DNA of 64,000 nucleotides from NCBI GenBank assembly GCA_022340585.1, contig JAJDNS010000037.1, positions 4,834 to 68,833 of the forward strand, given 5' to 3'. This document shows, one piece after another, positions 45,390 to 63,305 of this stretch (the first letter of the stretch is position 1; each line of letters opens with the position of its first letter). This DNA is from Acidobacteriota bacterium. GTDB taxonomy: Bacteria; Acidobacteriota; Vicinamibacteria; Fen-336. The notes below the pieces were generated by a model, which made no database searches, was not told the DNA's origin, and saw nothing but the letters and a program-made list of their open reading frames with translations. Both the position numbers and the translations under genes were made by a program.

Positions 45390-46808
45390 TCAGGGCGCGC
45401 GACCGGGCTCGCGCACGCCCGTTCCCTTCTGCTCCGTGGCCGAGTCTCCGAGGTCCTTGCGCGCCTCCTCGGCGAGGGCCTCGAGCCGCTTCACGACGTC
45501 GGGGTGCTGCGCCGCCACGTCGGTGGTCTCCGAGCGATCCACCCGGAGGTCGAACAGCGCGAGACCGATGGAGCGCTGGGTGTACCGGCCCGGCATCCCG
45601 CCGGATCCGGGGGGGCCGTCCAGGCTCCGGTACTCGTGAGGGAAGTGCAGCTTCCACCGCCCGCTCCTCACCGCCTGCAGGTGCCGGCCCCAGTAGAAGA
45701 AGAGGGCTTCGTGAGGAGACACCGCCCCGGGGTCACCCAGGAGAAGCGGGCCGATGTCCTTCCCGTCGATGGGCAGCTCAGGCAGCGGCGCCCCGGCCAG
45801 GCGCCCGATCGTGGGGAGAAGGTCGATCGTCATGGCCGGCTCGGTCACCACCGTGCCCGCGGGGATCCGTCCCGGCCAGCGGGCGAGGAAGGGCACGCCC
45901 ACTCCGCCGTCGAAGGAGGTCCCCTTGCCCTCGCGCAGGGGCCCGGCCGACCCGGCGTGGTCGCCGTAGGACAGCCAGGGCCCGTTGTCGGACGTGAAGA
46001 TCACCAGCGTGCTCTCGTCGAGGCCGAGCCGCTCGAGGGTGTCGAGGATGCGCCCGACGGTGTCGTCGATCTCCTCGATGACGTCGCCGAAGAGCCCTCG
46101 TGGCGTCCGTCCGCGGAAGGCCTCCGACGCGAAGATCGGGACGTGGGGCATCGAGTGGGCGAGGTAGACGAAGAAGGGCTCGTCTCGGTGAGCCTCGATG
46201 AAGGCCACTGCCCGCCGCCCGTACTCGCCGGTGAGCTGCGACTGGTCGGGGTTGGTCTCGACCGTCTCCTCACCCTCGATGAGAGGCAGCGGAGGGTAGT
46301 CGCCGGGCCGTTCGGGGTGGAAGGGCCACATGTCGTTGGAGTAGGGCAGCCCGTAGTAGTCGTCGAAGCCGTGGCGGGTGGGCAGGAAGGGAGGCAGGTG
46401 CCCCAGGTGCCACTTGCCGTAGATCGCGGTGGCGTAGCCACCCTTCTTCAGCATCTCGGCGAGGGTCGTCTCCTCCGCTGAGATGCCGTGCCGGGCGCGG
46501 TGGTCGACGGCGCCGGTGAGGCCCACGCGCTGGGGGTAGGCCCCCGTGAGGAGGGCCGCTCGGGAGGCAGTGCAGACCGCCTGGGCCACGTAGAAGTCGG
46601 TGAAGCGCACCCCCTCGGCGGCGAGTCGGTCGATGTGGGGCGTCGAGTACCCCTGAGCCCCGAACACCCCCACGTCCCCGTAGCCGAGATCATCGGCGAA
46701 CACGAGGACCACGTTGGGGGGGCGCTCGGCGGCACCGGAGACGGAGGGGAGAAGGAGCGCCGCCATGCTCAGCGGAACGGCCAGCCGGACGGATCGATTC
46801 GCGCGCAT
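45390..46808 (-). CDS. arylsulfatase (sulfatase family, formylglycine-dependent)
   Basis: ATG at 46808 with signal peptide. Sulfatase signature CTASRAALLTG (C-x-A/P-x-R) and GKWHLG. Confidence 0.85.
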   Translation of the reverse strand: MRANRSVRLAVPLSMAALLLPSVSGAAERPPNVVLVFADDLGYGDVGVFGAQGYSTPHIDRLAAEGVRFTDFYVAQAVCTASRAALLTGAYPQRVGLTGAVDHRARHGISAEETTLAEMLKKGGYATAIYGKWHLGHLPPFLPTRHGFDDYYGLPYSNDMWPFHPERPGDYPPLPLIEGEETVETNPDQSQLTGEYGRRAVAFIEAHRDEPFFVYLAHSMPHVPIFASEAFRGRTPRGLFGDVIEEIDDTVGRILDTLERLGLDESTLVIFTSDNGPWLSYGDHAGSAGPLREGKGTSFDGGVGVPFLARWPGRIPAGTVVTEPAMTIDLLPTIGRLAGAPLPELPIDGKDIGPLLLGDPGAVSPHEALFFYWGRHLQAVRSGRWKLHFPHEYRSLDGPPGSGGMPGRYTQRSIGLALFDLRVDRSETTDVAAQHPDVVKRLEALAEEARKDLGDSATEQKGTGVREPGRAP

Positions 46809-46878
46809 GGGCTCCTCCGTTGGCGGCGATTCTACCCGTCTTGACATGCCGGGGCGGCCCAACTATACGAGAGAGCGG

Positions 46879-47844
46879 ATGTCTCCCTCCCTGGTCGTCG
46901 GCCTCAACGCGGTCATCGTCGCGGTAACCGACGAGGAGCCGCGGCTGCTCACCGTGGAGCGCGAGGAGCGGGGGCCGCGGGGGGCCGGCGCCGTGGAGAC
47001 GGCTCTCCCCTTCGGTCCCCTCGACCCCGCCGGTCACCGGACCCTGGAGCTGGGCTTGCGCGACTGGGTGCACGAGCAGACGGGGCTGGAGCTGGGCTAC
47101 GCAGAGCAGCTGTACACGTTCGGCGACCGCCACCGTGACCCGAGGGAGCGAGCGGGCGGTCCGCGCGTGCTGTCGATCGCCTACCTGGCCCTCGTGCGCG
47201 AAGGACGGGTGGCCGGAGGCGGGCGAGCCCGCTGGCGGGGCTTCTACGAGTTTCTGCCGTGGGAGGACGCCCGAGCCGGGCGGCCAGAGCTCGTCGACGG
47301 GGTGATCGCCCCGGCGCTCGCCGAGTGGGTGAGGACGGCCTCCGACGCCAAGACGCGCCGGGCCCGGCGCGAGCGTGCCGACATCGCCTTCGGCCTGCGC
47401 GGCGTGGCCTTCGGCAGCGAGCGGGTGCTGGAGCGGTACGAGCTCCTCTACGAAGCCGGTCTCGTCGGCGAGGCGCGACGCGATCGAGGCCGCGTCGCTG
47501 CCGTGAGGCCGTCGCTCCTGGGTGAGCCGATGGCCCTCGACCACCGACGCCTCATGGCCACCGCCCTCGGGCGCCTCCGCGGCAAGCTCAAGTATCGGCC
47601 GGTGCTGTTCGAGCTGGTGCCGCCCACGTTCACCCTCCTGCGCCTGCAGCGCGTGGTCGAGGCCCTGGCCGGGGTGCGTCTGCACAAGCAGAACTTCCGG
47701 CGCCTGGTCGAGAAGGGGGGGCTGGTCGAGGGAACCGGGGTGGTCGAGCCGCAGGGAATCGGCCGTCCCGCCGAGCTGTTCCGCTTCCGGCGTGAGGTCC
47801 TGCGCGAGCGCCTGGCTCCCGGCGTCGGGGTGGGGCGCCGCTAG
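46879..47844 (+). CDS. Nudix-related transcriptional regulator NrtR-like (Nudix fold plus C-terminal winged helix)
   Basis: ATG at 46879 within ORF 46714..47844. N-terminal Nudix-like fold with a partly degenerate Nudix box (GHRTLELGLRDWVHEQTGLEL). C-terminal about 120 aa typical of the NrtR DNA-binding domain. Sits immediately upstream of nadABC. Confidence 0.68.
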   Translation: MSPSLVVGLNAVIVAVTDEEPRLLTVEREERGPRGAGAVETALPFGPLDPAGHRTLELGLRDWVHEQTGLELGYAEQLYTFGDRHRDPRERAGGPRVLSIAYLALVREGRVAGGGRARWRGFYEFLPWEDARAGRPELVDGVIAPALAEWVRTASDAKTRRARRERADIAFGLRGVAFGSERVLERYELLYEAGLVGEARRDRGRVAAVRPSLLGEPMALDHRRLMATALGRLRGKLKYRPVLFELVPPTFTLLRLQRVVEALAGVRLHKQNFRRLVEKGGLVEGTGVVEPQGIGRPAELFRFRREVLRERLAPGVGVGRR

Positions 47845-52754: not shown

Positions 52755-53216
52755 ATGACTCCGGCCGGCGTTACCTTCGGCCACGTGAACATCGTCGCGA
52801 GAGACTGGAAGCGGCTCTCGCGGTTCTACCAGGCGGTCTTCGGGTGCGAGCCGGTGCCGCCGCGCCGCCAGCTGTCCGGGGCCTGGCTGGAGGCGGGTAC
52901 CGGTGTCCCTGGCGCGGCGCTGGAGGGCGAGCATCTCCGGCTTCCCGGCCATGGCCCCGACGGGCCGACCCTCGAGATCTACTCGTACTCGAGGGCCCTC
53001 GACCGGCCGGGGACCGCCGCCAACCGGCTGGGGCTCGGCCACCTCGCCTTCCGCGTTCCCCACGTCGAGGAGGCGCTGGAGCAGGTGCACGCAGAGGGCG
53101 GGCGCGCGCTGGGGGAGGTTGCCTCCGCCCGGGTCCCGGGCAGGGGGCAGCTGACGTTCGTCTACGCGTGTGACCCCGAGAGCAACATCATCGAGCTCCA
53201 GTCCTGGTCCGACTGA
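52755..53216 (+). CDS. VOC (glyoxalase/bleomycin-resistance/dioxygenase) family protein
   Basis: ATG at 52755 within ORF 52695..53216. Two beta-alpha-beta-beta-beta modules (FGHVNIVARD...; LGHLAFRVPHVEEALE...IIELQ). Confidence 0.7.
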   Translation: MTPAGVTFGHVNIVARDWKRLSRFYQAVFGCEPVPPRRQLSGAWLEAGTGVPGAALEGEHLRLPGHGPDGPTLEIYSYSRALDRPGTAANRLGLGHLAFRVPHVEEALEQVHAEGGRALGEVASARVPGRGQLTFVYACDPESNIIELQSWSD

Positions 53217-53315
53217 TCCCCGGAGGATCTGAAGCAAAGAGTCGCCCCCTCTGAGGCAAAGGGCCCATGGAAATTGCTTACTGGAATGGTGGGTAATTAG
53301 GGAGCAGGGGGATGA

Positions 53316-53882
53316 ATGAAGCTCTCGACCCGGGCCCGATACGCGCTTCGAGTGATGCTCGACATCGCGCGGCACGGGGGGCAGGAGACCCCGGTCCCCC
53401 TGGCCGCCGTGGCCACCCGGACGGACCTGTCCCACGGCTATCTCGAGCAGCTCGCCATGGGGCTCCGGCGGGCTCGACTCCTGCGCGGGGTGGCCGGTCG
53501 CAAGGGTGGCTACCTCCTGGGCTCGGAGCCCTCCCAGATCCGGATCGGGACGGTCGTCGAGGCCTCCATCGGTGAGGTCTGTCTCGTCGACTGCGTGAGA
53601 ACCCCTTCTCTGTGCGAGCGGGCGGGCCGCTGCGAGACGCGGGCGCTGTACTGCCTGCTGAACGACCGGATCGAAGAGACCCTCCAGTCCGTGACCCTGG
53701 CCGACCTGATGGACGAGGACTGGCTGGCTGCTCACGGGGGCATCACCCCCGCGGACCTGGCCACGGCGCCCGACGGACCGGATCCGTGCTCCGCGTCGCG
53801 CGGGCCCCGGCGGGGTCGCCCTCGGACCCGCAAGATGCCGGCTGCCGCCGGCGAGACCGCCGAAAGGAGCCCCACGGGATGA
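53316..53882 (+). CDS. Rrf2-family transcriptional regulator (IscR/NsrR-like, three-Cys cluster ligand motif)
   Basis: N-terminal Rrf2 HTH (MKLSTRARYALRVMLDIARHG). Cys motif CLVDCVRTPSLCERAGRC. Extended Arg/Pro-rich C-terminal tail. Confidence 0.8.
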   Translation: MKLSTRARYALRVMLDIARHGGQETPVPLAAVATRTDLSHGYLEQLAMGLRRARLLRGVAGRKGGYLLGSEPSQIRIGTVVEASIGEVCLVDCVRTPSLCERAGRCETRALYCLLNDRIEETLQSVTLADLMDEDWLAAHGGITPADLATAPDGPDPCSASRGPRRGRPRTRKMPAAAGETAERSPTG

Positions 53883-54430
53883 CGCCGACGACGGTGGAGC
53901 AAATGGTGGAACGAAGGATCGGAGACAAGGTCGTTCGCATCGTGCGCGACGACATCACGGACATGGAGGTCGACGCCTTCGTCTTCGACATCACCGAAGA
54001 CGTCAAGCTGGGCTCCGGCCACGGAAGCGCCATCCAGCAGCGAGGGGGCGTCAAGATCCAGGAGGCCCTCGACGCCATCGGGAGCTGCTCCGTCGGGGAG
54101 GCGGTCATCACCACCGGGGGGCTGCTCAAGGCGAAGCACATCATTCACGCGAACGGCCCCAAGTTCTGCGAGCCCGACGAGGAGGGCAAGCTGCGCCGGG
54201 CCGCCCGGGCCGCCCTGCGGCTGGCCGACGAGAACGGCATCGAGACCCTCGCGTTTCCGCCCATGGGGACCGGCCTCTACCAGGTGCCGGTGGACCTCTG
54301 CGCCCGCGTGCTGGTCGATACGGTCGCCGAGCACCTGGCCGGCGAGACCGGCCTCAAGGAGGTGCTGTTCGTCGTCCCCGACTCCCGTGAGCGTGGGGCC
54401 TTCGAGGCCCGGATCCAGGAAGGAGCCTGA
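53879..54430 (+). CDS. macro domain protein (ADP-ribose/O-acetyl-ADP-ribose binding or hydrolase)
   Basis: ATGA overlap with the Rrf2 gene. Macro motifs (IVRDDITDMEVDAFVF, HANGPKF, LAFPPMGTGLYQVP). Confidence 0.8.
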   Translation: MTPTTVEQMVERRIGDKVVRIVRDDITDMEVDAFVFDITEDVKLGSGHGSAIQQRGGVKIQEALDAIGSCSVGEAVITTGGLLKAKHIIHANGPKFCEPDEEGKLRRAARAALRLADENGIETLAFPPMGTGLYQVPVDLCARVLVDTVAEHLAGETGLKEVLFVVPDSRERGAFEARIQEGA

Positions 54431-54432
54431 AG

Positions 54433-55119
54433 ATGGAGCACCATGACCCGAGCACGCTCCTAGCCTCCGTCGAGACGATCCACTGGATCGCCCTCGCCAT
54501 CATGGCCATCGTCTACACCCTGCGCCTCTTCTGGCTGTACCAGTTCCGCAACGGCCGTGAGCGACAGCCCGCCGGCCAGCCCGACAAGACCAACGCCTCG
54601 AAGGGGGCCCTGTACTCCCTGGGCAACGTGCTCATGCCCTGGGCCATGGAGAGCACCCGGGACGGGCTGCCCTTCTATGCCACGTTCCTCGTCTTTCACC
54701 TCGGTGTCGCGGCCGGCATCGGCCTCGCCTTCGTGAGCTCGCTCTACCGGCCCGCGGTAGAGATCCCGGTGGTTGGAGTGACCGTCTTCGCGCTCCTGGC
54801 CGCGGCCTTCGCCATCGGCCTGTACCGGATCGTCCGGCGGTTCACTCTCCCGCACCTCAAGCTGATCAGCTCGCCCGACGACTACTTCGCGGTCGTCATG
54901 CTCACCGGCTGGTTCCTCTCCGGGATGCTCGCCCAGTCCTACTTCCTGGGCTGGCTCCAGAGCGAGCTGCTCCTCGTGGCCTTCCTTCTGTACACGAGCT
55001 TCTTCCTGATCTACGTGCCGTTCTCGAAGATCTCCCACTATCTCTACTACCCGTTCACCCGCTACTGGCTCGGCCGCAGCCTGGGCCACCGGGGCAGCAT
55101 GCCCTACGTCCGCGGGTGA
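54433..55119 (+). CDS. NarI/DsrM/HdrE-like membrane-bound cytochrome b subunit (putative)
   Basis: 228 aa, 5–6 transmembrane helices, with His residues positioned as potential haem ligands (HWIALAIMAIVY, FLVFHLGVAAG, SHYLYYPF). Immediately upstream of the Fe-S/CCG protein, as in DsrMK/HdrDE modules. Confidence 0.6.
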   Translation: MEHHDPSTLLASVETIHWIALAIMAIVYTLRLFWLYQFRNGRERQPAGQPDKTNASKGALYSLGNVLMPWAMESTRDGLPFYATFLVFHLGVAAGIGLAFVSSLYRPAVEIPVVGVTVFALLAAAFAIGLYRIVRRFTLPHLKLISSPDDYFAVVMLTGWFLSGMLAQSYFLGWLQSELLLVAFLLYTSFFLIYVPFSKISHYLYYPFTRYWLGRSLGHRGSMPYVRG

Positions 55120-55129
55120 AGGAGGCAAC

Positions 55130-56929
55130 TTGAGCGAACTTGCCCCGTCTCACAAGGTCGAGAAGATCCTCGAGCAGCTCCCCAGGAAGCTCACCCGGCA
55201 GGTGGTCGGCTCGCTGGTCGGCTGCGTGCACTGCGGGATGTGCCACGACTCCTGCCACTACGCCCTGGCCTTCCCCGACGACCCGAAGATGACCCCGTCC
55301 TACAAGGCGGACCAGCTGCGGAAGATCTTCAAGCAGCACCACGACTGGACGGGCCGGGTCTTTCCGAAGTGGGTCAAGGCCGGATCGCCGATGACCGACG
55401 ACGACCTGGAGGAGCTGAAGGACATCGCCTTCGGGACCTGCACCAACTGCCGCCGCTGCACCTACAACTGCCCCATGGGTGTGGACACCGCGACTCTCAA
55501 CCGCATCATGCGCGGGCTGCTCTCCCGCGTGGGCGTCATGCCCGAAGGCGTGCGGGTGGTGAGCAAGGACCAGTGGGAGATCGGGAACCAGATGGGGGTC
55601 CTCAAGGAGGACTACCTGGACACCCTCGACTGGATGTCCGAGGAGCTGGAGGAGCAGCTCGGGCACGACCGCGCCAGGATCCCGGTGGACAAGAAGGGCG
55701 CGAAGGTGATGTACACCATCAACCCCCGCGAGGCCAAGTACGACCCCCGGACGATCAAGGCCGCCGCCCTCATCTTCTATGCCGCCGGCGAGGACTGGAC
55801 CATGCCCAGCGAAGGCTGGGACCAGACCAACTTCGGCCTGTTCTCCGGTGACGACCAGCTCGGCGGCGTGTGCGGGAAGCGCGTCTACGAGAAGCTCGCC
55901 GAGCTCGGCTCGAAGGAGCTCGTCATCTCCGAGTGCGGCCACGGGTACCGGTCGACCCGCTGCGAGGCCCCGAACTGGGCCGGTGTCGACGTGGACTTCA
56001 CCATGGAGAGCTCGGTCATGACCATGCTCCGCTACGTGAAGGAGGGCCGCATCAAGGTCGACAAGAGCCGGAACAAGGAGCGGGTGACGTTCCACGACTC
56101 GTGTAACAACGCCCGCAGCTGCGGGTTCTACGAGGAGCCGCGGGAGCTGCTGAACCTGGTGGTCAGCGACTTTCAGGAGATGTACCCCAACCGCACGGAG
56201 AACTACTGCTGCACCGGCGGGGGCGGGGCCATGTCGATGGCGGAGTACACGCCCCGCCGTTTGAAGTCCGGCAAGGTCAAGGCCGACCAGATCAGGGCCA
56301 CCGGGGCGAAGGTCGTGGTGACCTCCTGCCACAACTGCGTGGACGGGCTCGGCGACCTCATCAAGCACTACAAGCTCGACTGCGAGGTGAAGCAGCTCGT
56401 GGACCTGGTGGCCGAGGCCCTGGTCCTCGACGAGCTCGAGAAGCCGAAGGCAGAAGCGGCCCCGGCAGAGGTCACGGCCCCGGCTCCGGCCCCGGTCGAG
56501 GCGGCCGAGCCCCGGCCGGAGCCGGCGGCGCCCCTCGGCGGACGGCGGATCCTCGTCGTCGACGACGAGGAGGACGTCCGGACGTTCCTTTCGACGGTCC
56601 TCGAGGACGCCGGGGCCGTGGTTCTGCAGGCCACGGACGGAGACGAGGCCATGGCCGCCATGGCGGCGGAGAAGCCGGACCTCGTCACCCTGGACCTGTC
56701 GATGCCCGGCAAGGATGGTGTCGAGGCCTTCGCCGAGATGCGGAAGCACCCGGGGATCAAGGAGATTCCGGTGTGCGTGGTGACCGGTCACCCGGAGTTT
56801 CGGAAGGTGATCTACGACCGGGCGGTCCCCCCGCCCGAGGGCTACATGGACAAGCCGATCGACGAGGAGGAGTTGGTCTCCAATCTCAAGCGCATCCTCG
56901 ATCTGCGGGAGAAGAAGACCCACCAGTGA
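55130..56929 (+). CDS. HdrD/GlpC/DsrK-like Fe-S protein (two 4Fe-4S ferredoxin motifs plus CCG domains) fused to a C-terminal response-regulator receiver domain
   Basis: CVHCGMCHDSCHY and CTNCRRCTYNCPMG (CxxCxxCxxxC[HP]). CCG-domain cysteines (CGHGYRSTRC, CNNARSC, NYCCTGGGG, SCHNC). Pro/Ala-rich linker, then a full REC domain (RRILVVDDEEDV...DLVTLDLSMPGKDG...GYMDKP). Confidence 0.75.
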   Translation: MSELAPSHKVEKILEQLPRKLTRQVVGSLVGCVHCGMCHDSCHYALAFPDDPKMTPSYKADQLRKIFKQHHDWTGRVFPKWVKAGSPMTDDDLEELKDIAFGTCTNCRRCTYNCPMGVDTATLNRIMRGLLSRVGVMPEGVRVVSKDQWEIGNQMGVLKEDYLDTLDWMSEELEEQLGHDRARIPVDKKGAKVMYTINPREAKYDPRTIKAAALIFYAAGEDWTMPSEGWDQTNFGLFSGDDQLGGVCGKRVYEKLAELGSKELVISECGHGYRSTRCEAPNWAGVDVDFTMESSVMTMLRYVKEGRIKVDKSRNKERVTFHDSCNNARSCGFYEEPRELLNLVVSDFQEMYPNRTENYCCTGGGGAMSMAEYTPRRLKSGKVKADQIRATGAKVVVTSCHNCVDGLGDLIKHYKLDCEVKQLVDLVAEALVLDELEKPKAEAAPAEVTAPAPAPVEAAEPRPEPAAPLGGRRILVVDDEEDVRTFLSTVLEDAGAVVLQATDGDEAMAAMAAEKPDLVTLDLSMPGKDGVEAFAEMRKHPGIKEIPVCVVTGHPEFRKVIYDRAVPPPEGYMDKPIDEEELVSNLKRILDLREKKTHQ

Positions 56930-56963
56930 GGCCGCGCCGTGGCGGAGGCCGCGGGAGAGACAG

Positions 56964-58451
56964 ATGCCGGCTGACAGCGCCGCGCCGCCGGTGGCGAACG
57001 CGGGCCCGGAGGGCCCTTACCGCCAGTACTTCGAGGACATGCCGTGCTACCTGTCCGTCCACGACCGGAGGTTCCGGATCGTCGACGGCAACCGCCGATT
57101 CCACGAGGATTTCGGGGGTCGGATCGGCGAGCCGTGCTACGAGGTCTACAAGGGCCTCGAGGGCGTCTGCCCGGACTGCCCGGTGGAGGCGACCTTCGCC
57201 GACGGAGGGAGCCACAGCAGCGAGCAGACCCTCATCAACAAGCACGGCCGGAAGGTCCCGGTCATGGTCAACACCACCCCCGTCCGCGACGAGGGCGGCA
57301 AGGTGGTGGCGGTCATGGAGATGCACACCGACCTCACCGAGGTGAAGCGCCTCGAGAGCCTGCTTCAGCACAGCCAGGAGCGTCTGGCCCAGCTCTTCGA
57401 GGAGGTGCCCTGCTATGTCACCGTTCAGGGCCCCGACCTCGTGGTGAGTCACGCCAACCGCAAGTTCCGCGAGACATTCGGGGCGGCGGTGGGGAACCAC
57501 TGCTACCGGGTCTACAAGCATCGGGAGGAGCAATGCCTGGTCTGCCCCACCCTGCGGACACTGGCCGACGGCGAGGTGCGCCATCACGAGGAGGTCGTGC
57601 TCTCGGCCGAGGGTGAGAGGATCAACGTCCTCTGCACCACCGCCCCCGTCCACGACGCCGAGGGACGCGTCGAGGGCGCCATCGAGATGTCCGTCGACAT
57701 CACCGAGCTGCGCCGGCTCCAGCCCCAGCTCGCCTCCATCGGGCTCCTGGTGGGCTCCATCTCCCACGGGATCAAGGGCCTCCTGAGCGGGCTGGACGGA
57801 GGCATCTACCTGGTCAACACCGGTCTGCAGAAGGACCGGCCCGAGAGGGTCAAGAAGGGCTGGGACATGGTCCAGCGGAACGTGACCGCGATCCGGAGCA
57901 TGGTCCTGGACATCCTCTACTACGCGAAGGATCGGGAGCTGCTGCTGAGCGACGTGAGCGTCGAGCAGCTCGTCTCCGAGCTGCGGGACGTGATCGGCAA
58001 GAAGGCCAGCGACCAGGGGACCGAGCTCGAGCTGGAGGTCCGCGGCGAGGCGGGCTCGCTCGAGGGCGACTACAAGGCCATCCGCTCCATGCTGGTGAAC
58101 GTCCTGGAGAACTCCCTCGAGGCCTGCCGGAGCGACCAGCAGAAGGACGGGCACCGGGTCCGGCTCGGTGTGTGGCGGACCCCGCCCTGGATGGTCTTCG
58201 AGGTCGAGGACAACGGAATCGGAATGGACCGGGAGACCCGGGAGAAGATCTTCTCCCTGTTCTTCTCGTCCAAGGGCATCAAGGGCACCGGCCTCGGGCT
58301 GTTCATCGCCAACAAGATCGTGGACCGGCACGGTGGCAGCATCGAGGTGGAGTCGGAGCCCGGACGGGGAACCCGCTTCCTCGTGCGTCTGCCCCTGGAG
58401 GCGCGACCGAGCACCCGTCCTCCCGACCAGGAGGTAGCGGAGACGACATGA
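56964..58451 (+). CDS. sensor histidine kinase with two Cys-rich PAS domains
   Basis: Two PAS domains, each with a C-x26/28-C-x10/11-C-x2-C pattern (MPCY...EPCYEVYKGLEGVCPDCP; VPCY...NHCYRVYKHREEQCLVCP). HisKA H-box SISHGIKGL. HATPase_c (DNGIGMD, GTGLGLFIA). Confidence 0.85.
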   Translation: MPADSAAPPVANAGPEGPYRQYFEDMPCYLSVHDRRFRIVDGNRRFHEDFGGRIGEPCYEVYKGLEGVCPDCPVEATFADGGSHSSEQTLINKHGRKVPVMVNTTPVRDEGGKVVAVMEMHTDLTEVKRLESLLQHSQERLAQLFEEVPCYVTVQGPDLVVSHANRKFRETFGAAVGNHCYRVYKHREEQCLVCPTLRTLADGEVRHHEEVVLSAEGERINVLCTTAPVHDAEGRVEGAIEMSVDITELRRLQPQLASIGLLVGSISHGIKGLLSGLDGGIYLVNTGLQKDRPERVKKGWDMVQRNVTAIRSMVLDILYYAKDRELLLSDVSVEQLVSELRDVIGKKASDQGTELELEVRGEAGSLEGDYKAIRSMLVNVLENSLEACRSDQQKDGHRVRLGVWRTPPWMVFEVEDNGIGMDRETREKIFSLFFSSKGIKGTGLGLFIANKIVDRHGGSIEVESEPGRGTRFLVRLPLEARPSTRPPDQEVAETT

Positions 58452-58846
58452 GGATCCTCGTGGTCGACGACGACCCCGACGTCGTCGAGTACCTGTCCTC
58501 CTTCCTCGAAGACGAGGGTTGCGAGGTCGCGTCGGCCGGCGACGAGCGCACGGCACTGGAAGAGGTGGAGCGCTCCACCCCCGACGCCATCCTGATCGAC
58601 GTCATGCTGCCCGGGCGGTCGGGTCTCGACCTCCTCCTCCGCCTGCGTCGTGACCCTCGTTGGACCGAGATTCCCCTCGTCCTCGTCACCGGAGACGACA
58701 GCGTGCTCAAGGACGAATGTCGCTCCTATCTCGAAGCTCATCCGGATGTCAGGGGGCCCGACCGCGTGCTCGGGAAGCCCATGGAACGCGACCTGCTTCT
58801 CTCGGTTCTGAAGGGGGTCGCCGTCGTCAGCACCACCCCGGGATAG
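58448..58846 (+). CDS. single-domain response regulator (CheY-like receiver)
   Basis: ATGA overlap with the upstream histidine kinase. MRILVVDDDPDV...ILIDVMLPGRSG...LVTGDD...GKP receiver motifs. Confidence 0.8.
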   Translation: MRILVVDDDPDVVEYLSSFLEDEGCEVASAGDERTALEEVERSTPDAILIDVMLPGRSGLDLLLRLRRDPRWTEIPLVLVTGDDSVLKDECRSYLEAHPDVRGPDRVLGKPMERDLLLSVLKGVAVVSTTPG

Positions 58847-58931
58847 AGGTTGGACGCCCCTCCCGGTGCTATGCTTGGCGCAAGGGAAGGGGGCGGCCCG
58901 AGTCCCGACTTTCGACCGCCAGGGAGGCGAG

Positions 58932-59330
58932 ATGGCCCAACTCCGCGTGCTCGTCATCGACGACGAGCCTGACCAGACGACCTACCTGTCCACCCTCCTG
59001 CAGGACCAGGGGTGGGAGGCGCGCACCGCGAACTCGGCCGACGAGGGCCTCGCCCTGGCCCGCGAGGAAGTTCCCGACGTGGTCCTCCTCGACGTGATGA
59101 TGCCCGAGCGCGGCGGCCTCAGCACCCTGATCGCCCTGCGCAAGGACGAGAAGACGAAGTCGGTTCCGGTGGTCCTCGTGACCGGGATCCAGGCGGAGCT
59201 CACCCACGACTTCTCCGCCTTCCTGGACCGCTTCAAGAAGCATCACCCGGACGCGTATCTCGAGAAGCCGGTGGACCCCGAGAAGCTCCTGAAGACCCTC
59301 GACGAGGTCTGCAGCCCCGCCGCCCCCTGA
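58932..59330 (+). CDS. single-domain response regulator (CheY-like receiver)
   Basis: ATG at 58932 (MAQLRVLVIDDEPDQ...VLLDVMMPERGG...LVTGIQ...EKP) within ORF 58866..59330. Confidence 0.75.
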   Translation: MAQLRVLVIDDEPDQTTYLSTLLQDQGWEARTANSADEGLALAREEVPDVVLLDVMMPERGGLSTLIALRKDEKTKSVPVVLVTGIQAELTHDFSAFLDRFKKHHPDAYLEKPVDPEKLLKTLDEVCSPAAP

Positions 59331-59548
59331 GGGAGCAGGGTCAGGCGGTGAGGTATCGCGCCGCGGGGCCATCAGGGCGGCGCGGTGCGAAATGAGAGGG
59401 ATGTGTCGGGGCAGGGAGCCGGGTGGAGTGGTGCGGTGTGGCGAGGCCCGGGGGAGACCTGGCGTCGGGGGATGGAGGTTGGTTGGGACGGGAGACGGCG
59501 CGAGGGGGAGATTGCGCTGGCATCGACGGCCCGGCGGCGATGCCAGCG

Positions 59549-60922
59549 CTATATGCCGTAGGTCTTGATCTTCTCCCAGAGGGTCTTGCGGCTGATGCCG
59601 AGGATCTCGGCGGCGTCGTTGCGGCGGCCGTCGGTGGCGGCGAGGGCGGCCCGAATGGTCTCCATCTCCGCGCGCTCGACCGCCCGCCGCAGTGGCTCGG
59701 CCGAGCGGGGGGACGCGAGTGACGGCGGCAGGGGAGGCGCGTCGCGCAGGCTCGGGGGAAGGTGCTCGGGGGTGATCTGGGACCCGCGGCAGAACACCAC
59801 CGCTCGCTCGATGACGTTGCGGAGCTCGCGCACGTTGCCGGGCCAGGCATGGCCGTCCAGGACCTCCAGGGCGTCGTCCGAGAGGCCCTCGATCTCCTTG
59901 CCGCGCTCGCCGCTGAACTCCCGCAGGAAGGCCTGGGCCAGCAGCGGGATGTCCTCGCGCCGCTCCCGGAGGGGCGGCAGGCGGATCGGGACGGTGTTGA
60001 TGCGGAAGAAGAGGTCTTCGCGGAAGCCGCCCTCGGCGATCCCCTCCTCCAGCGATCGCAGAGACGCCGAGACGAATCGGACGTCGACGTCGATCGGCCG
60101 GTTGGAGCCAAGGCGCTCGATCTGGCGCTCCTGCAGCACGCGGAGCAGCTTGGCCTGAACGGCGAGGGGCAGGTCGCCGATCTCGTCGAGGAAGAGTGTC
60201 CCGCCCGCGGCGGCCTCGAAGCGCCCGATGCGGCGCTGGGTAGCGCCGGTGAAGGCCCCCTTCTCGTACCCGAACAGCTCGGACTCCACCAGGGACTCGG
60301 GCAGGGACGCGCAGCTCACCCGGATGTAGGGCCCGGCCCGACGCCTGGAGTTGTAGTGAATGGCCGAGGCCACCAGCTCCTTCCCGGTCCCGCTGTCGCC
60401 CTGGATCAGCACGCTGGCGTCGGAGTGGGCCACTTCCTGGATGAGCCAGAAGACCTCCTGCATCTTCCTGGACTTGCCAATGATGTTGGAGAACGAGTAG
60501 CGCTCCTCGAGCTGCTCCCGAAGACGGACGTTCTCCTCCTGGAGCTGCCGCCGTGAGCAGACGCTCTCGATGCGAATGAGCAGCTGGGCCATCGAGAATG
60601 GCTTGGTGACGAAGTCGGCCGCTCCCTCGCGCATGGCCGCAACCGCCTTCTCGACGGAGCCATGGGCGGTGATGAGGAGCACCGTGGCGCCCGCGTGAAG
60701 CGCCTTGACCCGGCGCAGAAGCTCCATCCCGTCGAGGGATGGCATCACCAGGTCCGTCACCACGACGTCGTGAAGGTACTGCTCGAAGAGGGCCATGGCC
60801 TTGACGCCGTCGACGGCCACGTCGACGGTCCACCCGTTCTTCCGGAGCGCGTCGGCCATGCTCACCCGGAGCAGGGGCTCGTCCTCGGCGATCAGCAGGC
60901 GGTTGCCACACGGAGCCGTCAT
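59549..60922 (-). CDS. sigma-54-dependent Fis-family response regulator (NtrC-like: REC, AAA+ sigma-54 activator, HTH)
   Basis: REC ([11 protein letters not shown]...[12 protein letters not shown]). AAA+ with Walker [31 protein letters not shown]-terminal Fis HTH ([21 protein letters not shown]). Confidence 0.92.
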
Positions 60923-62415
60923 ACCTCGTCCTCGTCCTCCTGGTCCTCGTCCCTGGGGAAGAGGACGCGGAAGACCGACCCTTCACCCTCGGTGGTCTCC
61001 ACCTCGAGGCCCCCGCCGTGGGCGGTGGCGATGTTGTAGCTCACGGCGAGGCCGAGGCCTGTCCCCTTGCCCACGTCCCGGGTCGTGAAGAAGGGATCGA
61101 AGATCCGCTCGCGGATGGCCTCGGGGATTCCGGAGCCGGTGTCGCCCACCTCGACGACCTCCCACGCCCCCTGCCGCAGTGTGCGCAAGGTCAGCGTCCC
61201 GCCCTCGGGCATCGCCTGCAGCGCGTTGAGAACGAGGTTGAGGAAGAGCTGCTCGACCTGGAAGCGGTCGCCGACGATCCAGGGGTCGCGGGGATCGAGC
61301 TCGAAGCGGGGTTCCACCCCGCTCTTGCGGAGCTGGAACCGCACGAGGTCGATCACCTGCTTGAGGCTCTGGTTCAGCGAGGCCGGCCCGAGCCGCATGG
61401 AGCGAGGCCGCGAGAAGTCCAGGAGGCTGGCGACGGTGCGCTCGATCCGCTTGACCCCGTCGTGGATGAGACCGAGATACTGCTCACGCATCTCCGTGTT
61501 CTCGGGGTCGTCCCGCATGTTCTCGATGCAGGTCAGGACGCCGGCGACCGGGTTGTTGACCTCGTGAGCCACCCCGGCGGCGAGCGTGCCGACCGCGGCC
61601 ATCTTCTCGGTGTGGGCAAGCTGGGACTGCTGCACCTTCTCGCGCTCGCGGTTCTCCGCGAGCTCGTCCATCATGCCGTTGAAGGCCTTCCCCAGCTCTC
61701 CGATCTCGTCGTGGCGTCGCGACGTCGCGCGCACCGCGAGATCCCCGTGGGCCGCCCTCTGCATCACCTGGTGCAGGGCCAGGATCGGCCGGATCAGCCA
61801 CTCCATGGAGATGGCGCTGATCACGGCGTTGACCGCGAGCACCAGCAGCGCGATCACGACGAGGCGCGAAGCCATGAGCTCGATCTCCCGCTCCACCGGC
61901 TCCAGCGAGAAGCCCACCGCGAGGGAGCCCCAGAACTTGGTGGAGATGTGGAGCGGCTCCCGGATCTCGAGGACGCGCTCCCCTCCCTCCTCGATCCGTC
62001 TCTGGGCCGGGGGGGGACGCAGGACCGAGGCCGGATCGAGGGCCCGCTCGAAGGGGCGGCCCACCATCGGCCAGCGGTTGGAGTGGGTCACGATCCCGTC
62101 GGCGTCCGTCACGATGACGTAGAGCATCGCGTCGCGGTTGCTGGCGAGGATCTCGGAGATGTAGTTGTCGGTCAGGCCGGCGCTGGGGGCGCGTCCCAGG
62201 TCCTTGTTCATGAGGGCGTCGGTGATGGGGACCGCGAGGGCGGCGGCCACGCTCCGGGCCCGCCGCTCGATGGCATCGTTCTGCTGCTGGCGCTCGTGGG
62301 CGACGACGAGGAGGGTGACGATACCCATCGTGATCGCGATGGCCGCGTTCGAGAAGAGGAAGATCTTCGGCCGCAGCCCCAGCCTGGGAAGGCCGAGCCG
62401 CTCGGTCAGGGACAC
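60919..62415 (-). CDS. sensor histidine kinase with periplasmic-type sensor region and HAMP domain
   Basis: C-terminal 499 aa of ORF 60919..63234 (GTG at 62415). Two transmembrane helices flank an approximately 150-aa region. HAMP ([35 protein letters not shown]). H-box VAHEVNNPV. HATPase_c ([15 protein letters not shown]). 4-nt overlap with the NtrC-like gene. Confidence 0.8.
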
Positions 62416-63305
62416 TGCAGCTCTCCGCGGGGCTGGGTGAGGGCCGTCGGCCCGAAGACCCGCTCGGCCAGGCGACGCACCATGTCGTAGTCGGCGTCGG
62501 CGGCGATGGTGAAGCCACCGGTCAGCTCGAGATCCCACCGCTCCTCGCTCCGCCGGGGCCGGGCCCTTCCCGGGAAGCGGAGGAGGACGGTGGAGAGGGC
62601 GTCGCGTTCCGACCGGGAGCTGCCCGGTGGCGTCACCCAGGGATAGGCGGGGATGGGTCCGGATCGGGCGAGGCGGCGCAGTCCCCGGTGCAGGAACAGC
62701 TCGCCGATGACGTCGCGGACTCCGCAGGCCTCCACCTCGCCCATGAGCACCGCTCGCGCCGCGCGCTCGTGTTGCCCGAAGTAGTGGCATGTGAAGTCGC
62801 GTCCGGGCTCGAGGCCGGCGTCCAGGAGCATGGCCCGCGGAACGAGGTGCGAGGAGGTGGACAGGGTGTCCCCGAAGCCGATGCGGTGGCCCGCGAGGTC
62901 CTGGAGGCTCTCGAACGGGCTGTCGGATCGCACGAGGACGTCGCTGTAGAAGACATCGCTTCCCTGTGTCTGGAGCCGGAGCAGGGGCTCGGCGCCACAC
63001 CGGGTATGGGCGCGAACATAGCTGAGCGGGCCGAGGTAGGCGAGGGCCACCCGCCCCGTGCACAGGTCGTCCACCGCTTCCTGATAGGAGGCGCTCACCG
63101 CCAGCGCCCACGGCTCCCCGGTCTGCTCGCTCAGGTAGTCGACCAGCGGCTGGTACTTCACGTACATCGAGCGCGGGTTGTAGAAGCTCACCACCCCGAG
63201 CCGGGCGGGCGCGTCTTCGCCAGCCGCCCCCCATCCAGGGAGCGCCCCGAGCAGCGCGGCGAGGGTGAGCAGTCCCAGGCGACTAGGGCGTGGTCGTCCG
63301 TGCAC
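62406..63305 (-). CDS. PhnD/SsuA-type periplasmic substrate-binding protein (phosphonate/phosphite-binding-like), probably signalling partner of the downstream histidine kinase
   Basis: Signal peptide. PBP type-2 fold with PhnD-like motifs (YQPLVDYLSEQTG, VDDLCTGRVALAYLGPLSY, DLAGHRIGFGDTLSTSSHLVP). Its stop overlaps the histidine-kinase start by about 10 nt. Confidence 0.68.
   Translation of the reverse strand: MHGRPRPSRLGLLTLAALLGALPGWGAAGEDAPARLGVVSFYNPRSMYVKYQPLVDYLSEQTGEPWALAVSASYQEAVDDLCTGRVALAYLGPLSYVRAHTRCGAEPLLRLQTQGSDVFYSDVLVRSDSPFESLQDLAGHRIGFGDTLSTSSHLVPRAMLLDAGLEPGRDFTCHYFGQHERAARAVLMGEVEACGVRDVIGELFLHRGLRRLARSGPIPAYPWVTPPGSSRSERDALSTVLLRFPGRARPRRSEERWDLELTGGFTIAADADYDMVRRLAERVFGPTALTQPRGELQCP

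Follow-up and report, generated by a model that had tools for sequence, protein, structure and literature searches.

A soluble histidine kinase with four conserved cysteines in each of two PAS domains: a predicted redox sensor encoded beside a receiver-fused HmcF-like protein

What does a soluble sensor kinase detect, and what does it control, when both of its PAS domains carry the same four cysteines and the gene next to it encodes a redox enzyme? The question is raised by a gene at 56964..58451 (+) in a 64,000-nt stretch of DNA from an Acidobacteriota bacterium, referred to here as the window. This open reading frame (ORF) encodes a 495-residue protein that is predicted to be a soluble sensor histidine kinase, with the domain order PAS1-PAS2-DHp-HATPase. 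Each PAS domain has the pattern C-x29-C-x10-C-x2-C, and 8 of the 10 cysteines of the protein belong to these two motifs. The answer that we favor, with moderate confidence and on the basis of sequence comparisons, is that an Fe–S cluster in the pocket of each PAS domain would sense redox conditions, and that the kinase would act on receivers, including one fused to an HmcF-like protein.

The two domains, PAS1 (residues 19–131; 57018..57356, +) and PAS2 (residues 141–253; 57384..57722, +), were delimited with Pfam. Their motif cysteines, numbered here Cys1 to Cys4, are C28 (57045-57047), C58 (57135-57137), C69 (57168-57170) and C72 (57177-57179) in PAS1, and C150 (57411-57413), C180 (57501-57503), C191 (57534-57536) and C194 (57543-57545) in PAS2, all on the plus strand. 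A first-pass annotation of this DNA had described the four-cysteine pattern in both domains, and the two strings that it quoted are present exactly. Its pattern holds, whereas its spacings of x(26-28) and x(10-11) do not; the true values are x29 and x10 in both domains. All four Cys columns coincide between PAS1 and PAS2, although the two are only 37% identical to each other. An alignment of 40 diverse modules has eight invariant columns, and four of these are the motif cysteines; the shared pattern is therefore more than chance.

Conservation among orthologues had been named beforehand as the test of these cysteines, and they came through it. A hidden Markov model (HMM) of the module was run against 97 kinase homologues, without filtering on cysteines and counting complete modules rather than truncated fragments. 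CCCC was found in 106 modules; six lacked only Cys1 (replaced by S, D, A, G, S and T), and one read CLSC. Species-representative genomes were scanned as well, using a search pattern derived from a 9-sequence alignment. This pattern specified only Cys1, so the scan provides a more independent sample for Cys2–4. It gave 526 confirmed loci. Among the best 80 of these, CCCC occurs in both PAS domains of 75 kinases; two further kinases have just one CCCC PAS domain, and two combine a degenerate PAS1 with an intact PAS2. PAS2 is the better conserved module, and stays CCCC where PAS1 degenerates in distant homologues. Across phyla, the Cys columns are kept down to ∼35% module identity. The residue after Cys4 is Pro in 95 of the 106 CCCC modules, with Thr and Ile next most frequent. 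PAS1 of the window kinase has CPDC between Cys3 and Cys4, and Pro occurs at this position (residue 70) in 25 of the 106. Around Cys2, the consensus is GE[PH]C[YF]xVYK.

The kinases are part of a larger family, as seen when 1.84 billion representative proteins were screened with the single-module profile (554 proteins at E<=1e-30; 11,587 at E<=1e-10). A census of the 143 best new representatives, of 150 listed, gave 292 complete modules, and Cys2–4 are kept in 224 of them. Position 1 of these 224 modules is Cys in 108, Asp in 45, Glu in 7, Phe in 12, Tyr in 11 and His in 2. All 37 modules that score at least 150 bits are CCCC, those at 60–100 bits are mostly DCCC, and generic PAS matches below 40 bits mostly have none of the four cysteines (for example, DARA). 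Judged from these alignments, the core of the family is the three-Cys pattern C-x10-C-x2-C; Cys2–4 are near-invariant, and the fourth position is Cys in the clade studied here and often a carboxylate in its sister clades, which make up a much larger family. This replaceability of Cys1 by Asp or Glu had been missed in the first-pass annotation. The three-Cys PAS module also extends well beyond kinases of the present type. Five giant multi-PAS proteins, of up to 1,900 aa and with up to six three-Cys modules, have Asp or Tyr at position 1; one of them is labelled Dehalococcoidia and another Promethearchaeota (Asgard archaea).

Where in the PAS fold do the cysteines lie? An AlphaFold2 (AF2) model of residues 1–262 has a mean pLDDT of 92.5, with values of 94–97 over residues 51–80. 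In DSSP assignments on this model, C28 and C150 stand directly before strand A-beta, C58 and C180 are the first residue of helix E-alpha, and C69/C72 and C191/C194 are in the loop just before helix F-alpha, where Cys3 and Cys4 form a CxxCP knuckle. E-alpha, the N-terminus of F-alpha and A-beta line the cofactor pocket of PAS and LOV domains, and the motif cysteines of the model are in or beside this canonical pocket. Foldseek searches of the PDB matched the fold to the tandem PAS domains of DosP, NifL, FixL and MmoS, which are redox or O2 sensors; these were generic tandem-PAS sensors only, with no Cys4 relative among them. A profile search of the PDB likewise showed no solved family member and no NreB chain among the best 60 of 119 matches (to E ∼0.56). 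The nearest PDB sequences by profile were phototropin LOV and KCNH PAS domains, at a weak E of ∼1e-3. The first-pass annotation had proposed a ligand set for an Fe–S cluster, Zn or a covalently bound cofactor. The pocket location agrees with a ligand set in general, but a covalent heme is unlikely, given CxxCP in place of CxxCH. PAS sensors with c-type heme, of the Geobacter GSU0582/GSU0935 type, have CXXCH; this class was rejected, as the kinase has no CXXCH and Pro follows Cys4 in most modules.

The remainder of the protein is that of a kinase. Pfam matched PAS_4/PAS_9 twice (residues ∼19-131 and 141-253) and HATPase_c once (residues 368–479; 58065..58400, +; 1.1e-25), with no match for the HisKA model. 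The closest solved kinase is ThkA (3a0r), at E 6.3e-21 in an alignment that spans kinase residues 145–477. HMMER aligns His268 (57765..57767, +), in SISHGIKGLL, with the H-box RVAHEIRNPI of ThkA, and His268 is thus the predicted phospho-acceptor of the DHp domain. PAS domains, a DHp domain with a phospho-accepting His, and HATPase_c together place the protein among PAS-containing class I sensor histidine kinases. There is no transmembrane segment in it (19-residue Kyte–Doolittle hydropathy, KD19, peaks at 1.44). Neither Pfam nor NCBIfam has a model specific for this kinase; matches were to generic PAS models and to kinase models below cutoff. The gene has an RBS-like GGGAGAG (RBS, ribosome-binding site) 7–13 nt 5' of the ATG, and its G+C content at third codon positions (GC3) is 0.93, as in other real genes of this ∼70% GC window. 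An antisense ORF of 556 codons, at 56886..58556 (–), fully overlaps the gene. It was rejected as a high-GC artefact, because it fails the GC3/GC2 filter that the kinase passes and all domain matches are on the plus strand. The identical kinase protein was found on three metagenome contigs, and a further Acidobacteriota metagenome-assembled genome (MAG) encodes a kinase that is 95% identical over PAS2.

What could the kinase act upon? Its gene is the fifth in a cassette of closely spaced genes that share one strand. The first gene (53316..53882, +) encodes an Rrf2-family regulator (Pfam Rrf2, 7.4e-31). Its stop is overlapped by 4 bp by the start of a gene for a MacroD-like macro-domain protein, predicted to bind or hydrolyse ADP-ribose (53879..54430, +; Pfam Macro, 1.2e-26; NCBIfam O-acetyl-ADP-ribose deacetylase, 8.5e-32, below cutoff). 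Next come an HmcE/TmcC-like membrane subunit of the NarI-type cytochrome b family (54433..55119, +; NCBIfam HmcE 1.5e-16 and TmcC 2.3e-15, below cutoff) and an HmcF/TmcB/DsrK-like CCG Fe–S protein fused to a receiver (55130..56929, +; Pfam Fer4_8, CCG and Response_reg). Downstream of the kinase are two stand-alone receivers. REC1 (58448..58846, +; Pfam Response_reg, 8.7e-21) starts within the kinase stop (ATGA), and REC2 (58932..59330, +; Pfam Response_reg, 2e-20) also matches NCBIfam DVU0259_DivK (4.6e-21, below cutoff). All three receivers keep the acidic pocket (DD), phospho-acceptor Asp, Thr and Lys, as read from the translations. No cassette receiver has a DNA-binding domain, and the cassette contains no DNA-binding response regulator.

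The two redox proteins have the make-up of an HmcEF/TmcBC/DsrMK module, namely a NarI-type membrane subunit together with a cytoplasmic protein that has two [4Fe-4S] motifs and a CCG domain. For the HmcF-like protein, NCBIfam E-values are 9.5e-98 (HmcF), 2.4e-93 (TmcB) and 1.4e-73 (DsrK). All are below equivalog cutoffs in bits (HmcF 327.9/750, TmcB 313/735, DsrK 248/400; for the membrane subunit, HmcE 60.8/275), and by these scores the cassette proteins are relatives, not orthologues, of the named Hmc, Tmc and Dsr subunits. The two CxxCxxCxxxC motifs of the HmcF-like protein are ∼97% conserved, and C325, C360, C361, C400 and C403 of its CCG site are 100% conserved. An Ala/Pro linker leads to the receiver (residues ∼472–590), whose phospho-acceptor is D523 (56696-56698). 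A further receiver cysteine, C549 (in IPVCVVTG), is 97% conserved. The HmcE-like protein has several hydrophobic segments, and its H89 and H202 are 100% conserved. So are C93, C100 and C106 of Rrf2 in 56 cassette orthologues; their C-x6-C-x5-C spacing resembles that of the Fe–S-binding Rrf2 regulators IscR and NsrR. The cassette Rrf2 may be a second, transcriptional Fe–S sensor, as predicted from this spacing.

Is this arrangement incidental? The first-pass annotation had remarked that the kinase gene comes directly after a redox module, and the position proves to be conserved. Neighbors were counted at the 71 genome loci whose upstream DNA extends for 4 kb or more. The HmcF-like core is directly upstream of the kinase in 64 of the 71 loci, and in 61 it is fused to a receiver in a single ORF. 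The HmcE-like gene is present in 64 loci, the macro gene in 63 (one with rearranged gene order) and Rrf2 in 54. A receiver follows the kinase in 60 loci, and a REC2-type gene is divergently upstream of Rrf2 in most loci other than that of the window. One kinase, with three CCCC modules, lies in this gene set in another gene order, which favors a functional link over inherited synteny. Homologues of the HmcF-like::receiver fusion are 72–92% identical across phyla, versus 45–67% for the kinase, and are annotated merely as 'response regulator' or 'Fe-S oxidoreductase/CheY-like'. Host MAGs are labelled Acidobacteriota (Thermoanaerobaculia, Sulfomarinibacteraceae, Holophagae), Myxococcota, Planctomycetota, Zixibacteria, KSB1, Desulfobacterales, Ignavibacteriales and Gemmatimonadota.

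Some loci depart from the common plan. In five of them, the receiver directly upstream of the kinase is unfused, and the nearby CCG protein, where present, is more divergent; these loci may be intermediates between separate hmcF/rrf1 genes and the fused arrangement. No ADP-ribosyltransferase or sirtuin was seen near the macro gene that stands next to the membrane redox complex genes. An ORF for an NrtR-type winged-helix protein (46714-47844, +), of a family of ADP-ribose-responsive, Nudix-related regulators, lies ∼6 kb upstream of the macro gene. Both relate to ADP-ribose, but their proximity is probably coincidental, because the flanks differ in other loci; in the window, the flanking genes at 35–52 kb have unrelated housekeeping functions. 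A promoter and terminator scan of 53000–59700 gave nothing informative. PADLOC returned only weak, generic receiver-domain matches for the cassette proteins, and an anti-phage defence system was rejected. The opposite strand carries another two-component unit, unrelated to the first, at 59549-63305 (–), with genes for a sigma54-dependent response regulator (59549-60922, –), for an sCache_3-HAMP-HisKA-HATPase kinase that ends at 60919 (–), and for a PhnD-like periplasmic protein of the phosphonate-binding type (62406-63305, –).

How might such a sensor work? Each PAS domain would hold a cysteine-ligated Fe–S cluster in the canonical cofactor pocket. Its ligands would be Cys2 on E-alpha, the Cys3–Cys4 knuckle at the N-terminus of F-alpha, and a fourth Cys at the start of A-beta. 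Cytoplasmic redox state or oxidants would provide the signal. Oxidation, conversion or loss of the cluster could alter the coupling of the helices to the beta-sheet; transmitted along the PAS2–DHp helix, this change would affect autophosphorylation at His268. From there, the phosphoryl group would pass to the receiver fused to the HmcF/DsrK-like CCG subunit, which is predicted to form a two-subunit membrane complex with the HmcE-like protein, and also to one or two of the stand-alone receivers, with no DNA-binding output. In this way, the system would tune the activity or assembly of a quinone-linked redox complex of thiol/disulfide type post-translationally, and transcription would be handled by the Fe–S-type Rrf2. 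Since the candidate partners are all bare receivers, and the HmcF-like subunit has one of them fused to it, post-translational control of the HmcE/HmcF-like complex is the probable output. That the receiver fused to the redox enzyme is likely to be the output had escaped the first-pass annotation.

Why an Fe–S cluster? Cys-to-Asp/Glu exchange is typical of Fe–S ligands and Cys/His exchange of Zn sites, and Pro after Cys is seen in the C-P motifs of ferredoxins. We infer a cluster because Cys2–4 are near-invariant, Cys, Asp or Glu is found at position 1, Pro follows Cys4, the cysteines are at the pocket, the host lineages are suitable, and there are precedents in OrpR and NreB. The earlier suggestion of a redox or O2 sensor stands to this extent: a redox sensor is the best available reading, with precedents in OrpR (PMC8359166) and NreB (PMC13478379), and with Fe–S, Zn or none as the candidate ligand and O2, redox potential, sulfide or NO as the candidate signal.

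Several points weigh against this proposal. Four cysteines that include a CxxC knuckle also fit Zn(Cys)4, as far as sequence can tell. The nearness of Cys1 to Cys2–4, and the clustering of all four, are predicted from secondary-structure placement. The phosphotransfer partners are deduced from gene adjacency. Position 1 is Phe, Tyr, Val or Ile in ∼16% of Cys2–4 modules, so a fourth protein ligand is not universal. Finally, the degenerate PAS1 of distant tandem kinases tends to lose Cys2 and Cys3 and to retain Cys1 and Cys4, with Ser replacing Cys2 (CSPC, CSIC, CSNC, CSDC and CSTC, in seven proteins). The retained pair could be a thiol pair with a role of its own. It also hints that Cys1 and Cys4 are spatial neighbors, and is not fully explained by any present account.

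Could the metal be zinc? We consider it unlikely that the cysteines form a Zn(Cys)4 site, whether structural or a zinc-thiolate redox switch that, like the anti-sigma factor RsrA or Hsp33, releases Zn on oxidation. The CxxC knuckle at a helix N-terminus would suit such a site, the CPDC of PAS1 resembles the zinc-knuckle CPxC, and AF2 models the Cys region confidently without a cofactor. Yet Cys1 is replaced chiefly by Asp/Glu (52) or by hydrophobic residues, and by His only twice, and modules with three Cys only are common. Moreover, the hosts and the neighboring genes are rich in Fe–S proteins, and both characterised Cys-PAS sensors bind Fe–S. Zn in a cytoplasmic PAS domain does have a precedent in WalK, where it is bound by other ligands, namely His/Asp/Glu (PMC6624279).

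The conserved enzyme upstream suggests another arrangement, to which we assign a somewhat lower likelihood than to zinc. Here, the Cys4-PAS domains would be redox clients of the neighboring enzyme, in a path from menaquinone through the HmcE-like protein and the HmcF-like CCG site to the PAS cluster or cysteines, and the kinase would phosphorylate the receiver of the same subunit. This would be a closed, non-transcriptional feedback loop, with the macro protein adding an ADP-ribose-linked input.

A metal-free switch, based on thiol/disulfide or persulfide/polysulfide chemistry, seems improbable. Quinones (as for ArcB), sulfane sulfur (as for SqrR/CstR) or the CCG disulfide-reductase site of the HmcF-like neighbor would be its oxidants. 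In characterised relatives, the DsrK/HdrD-type CCG site reduces disulfide or trisulfide substrates, and the gene immediately 5' of the kinase encodes such a site, fully conserved. The PAS domains contain a CxxC motif, the degenerate PAS1 keeps Cys1 and Cys4 as a pair, and several host labels point to sulfur-cycling lineages. A thiol switch, however, leaves unexplained both the joint invariance of Cys2 with Cys3 and Cys4 and the frequent Asp/Glu at position 1. In addition, sensing of the ArcB type uses a membrane-anchored kinase, whereas the kinase here is soluble.

A cluster might be present and yet respond not to ambient redox potential but to a small molecule, such as sulfide/HS-, NO or O2, that binds to it as a ligand or attacks it, and we rate this lower again. 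Three near-invariant Cys with a variable fourth mirror the three-Cys [2Fe-2S] cluster of Bacillus licheniformis NreB, which has a labile fourth ligand and exchanges its labile sulfur ligand (PMC13478379), and the partner enzyme belongs to the DsrK/HmcF family, which is linked to sulfur respiration. But with all four Cys in both PAS domains of 75 of 80 loci, there is no obvious open coordination site, and the scanned parts of the window showed no sqr, pdo or dsr genes. Least of all, the cysteines might have no cofactor or sensing role, the likeness of PAS1 and PAS2 reflecting recent internal duplication only; the two modules are indeed paralogous (37% identity), but this reading is effectively refuted by conservation of the four columns across phyla down to ∼35% identity and by their absence from weak generic PAS matches.

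What would an Fe–S sensor of this kind mean? NreB and OrpR are the only experimentally studied cysteine-ligated Fe–S PAS sensors that we found, and the motif here would be a third. It occurs widely among uncultured bacteria, and from the labels of their lineages these appear to live in anoxic habitats with sulfur cycling. Our searches of the literature turned up neither this Cys motif nor an HmcF/HdrD::receiver fusion. From its sequence, the C-x29-C-x10-C-x2-C PAS domain is a new variant of the cysteine-ligated metal-cluster PAS sensors, with metal binding predicted, and is distinct from the NreB and OrpR motifs. The cassette is previously undescribed in the literature searched, widely distributed and unusually rigid. 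Another Cys-PAS sensor would by itself be unsurprising; it is the breadth, the double sensor and, above all, the receiver on a DsrK/HdrD-like subunit that make this a potentially new regulatory principle. The conserved pairing of a Cys4-PAS kinase with a receiver-fused redox enzyme suggests an undescribed wiring of redox sensing to a respiratory complex. If correct, two-component control would be exerted directly on a respiratory or thiol-redox enzyme, not on transcription, and would offer a way into the HmcEF/TmcBC-type modules, which are poorly understood, and into the long-known link between rrf1/rrf2 and hmc.

How does the system compare with those already known? In Staphylococcus carnosus NreB, the motif is C-x2-C-x11-C-x2-C. 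The CxxC comes first in NreB; here it comes last, with an extra ligand candidate on A-beta. NreB has one PAS domain rather than two, and signals to the DNA-binding NreC within nreABC, whereas the candidate partners here are receivers only, one of them fused to a redox enzyme. The likeness is that both are soluble kinases with PAS cysteines in the E-alpha to F-alpha region. NreB ligates, through cysteines of its N-terminal PAS domain (C63/C66/C78 in B. licheniformis), an Fe–S cluster that controls kinase activity (PMC13478379). The first-pass comparison with NreB-type sensors is thus apt as an analogy of mechanism and not as family membership. An NreB-type kinase was rejected, as motif order and spacing differ and the neighbors (HmcE-like, HmcF-like::REC, receivers, Rrf2 and Macro) provide no context of NarL-type NreC or GAF-type NreA.

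OrpR of Desulfovibrio vulgaris Hildenborough is a sigma54 activator and [4Fe-4S] sensor of redox potential with PAS cysteines C52, C61 and C65, and a nearby conserved Asp/Glu is its possible fourth ligand (PMC8359166). The three Cys span ∼13–14 residues, like Cys2–Cys4, and the Asp/Glu parallels the variation at position 1. Spacing differs (C-x8-C-x3-C versus C-x10-C-x2-C, compared by published motif rather than by direct alignment), as do the output (sigma54 AAA+ versus histidine kinase) and the number of PAS domains (one versus two). An OrpR-type sensor was therefore rejected, since neither the x10/x2 spacing nor the histidine kinase output fits.

With the LOV domains of phototropins, the kinase shares the Cys2 column. 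Cys2 aligns exactly with the photoactive Cys of LOV in the HMMER alignment (GKNCRFLQG versus GEKCYEVYK), and gapless extension of the significant AsLOV2 match puts Cys2 on C450; in AsLOV2, only the H-beta/I-beta region aligned significantly (hmmsearch, hhalign), and the LOV counterpart of Cys1 is uncertain. The flavin motif NCRFLQ is replaced here by C[YF]xVYKxR, and three further cysteines are present that LOV lacks. A flavin-binding LOV domain was rejected; GXNCRFLQ is not present, only the Cys column is shared, and flavin binding is not expected. ThkA of Thermotoga maritima (3a0r) is the best solved match for the PAS-DHp-HATPase part, but has non-Cys residues or a gap at the positions of Cys2–4. 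Escherichia coli ArcB is membrane-anchored and controlled by quinones through intermolecular disulfides of two PAS cysteines. The likeness to ArcB is that PAS cysteines would couple the redox state of a respiratory chain to kinase activity; in contrast, the kinase here is soluble, with four Cys per PAS domain in an arrangement like that of a metal site.

The nearest parallel to the gene context is in the Hmc and Tmc systems, where rrf1 is the gene for a receiver protein. E-like and F-like subunits are encoded with a receiver and Rrf2 in both cases, and the cassette receivers match the DVU0259 family model. The cassette has only the E and F subunits and lacks cytochrome c, HmcB, HmcC and HmcD; its receiver is fused to the F subunit, and the Cys4-PAS kinase and the macro protein are added. 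In the hmcABCDEF-rrf1-rrf2 operon of Desulfovibrio, rrf1 and rrf2 follow hmcF (10.1101/2023.11.02.564894). Compared with that operon, an rrf1-like receiver appears here to have become fused to the F subunit and to have a dedicated kinase.

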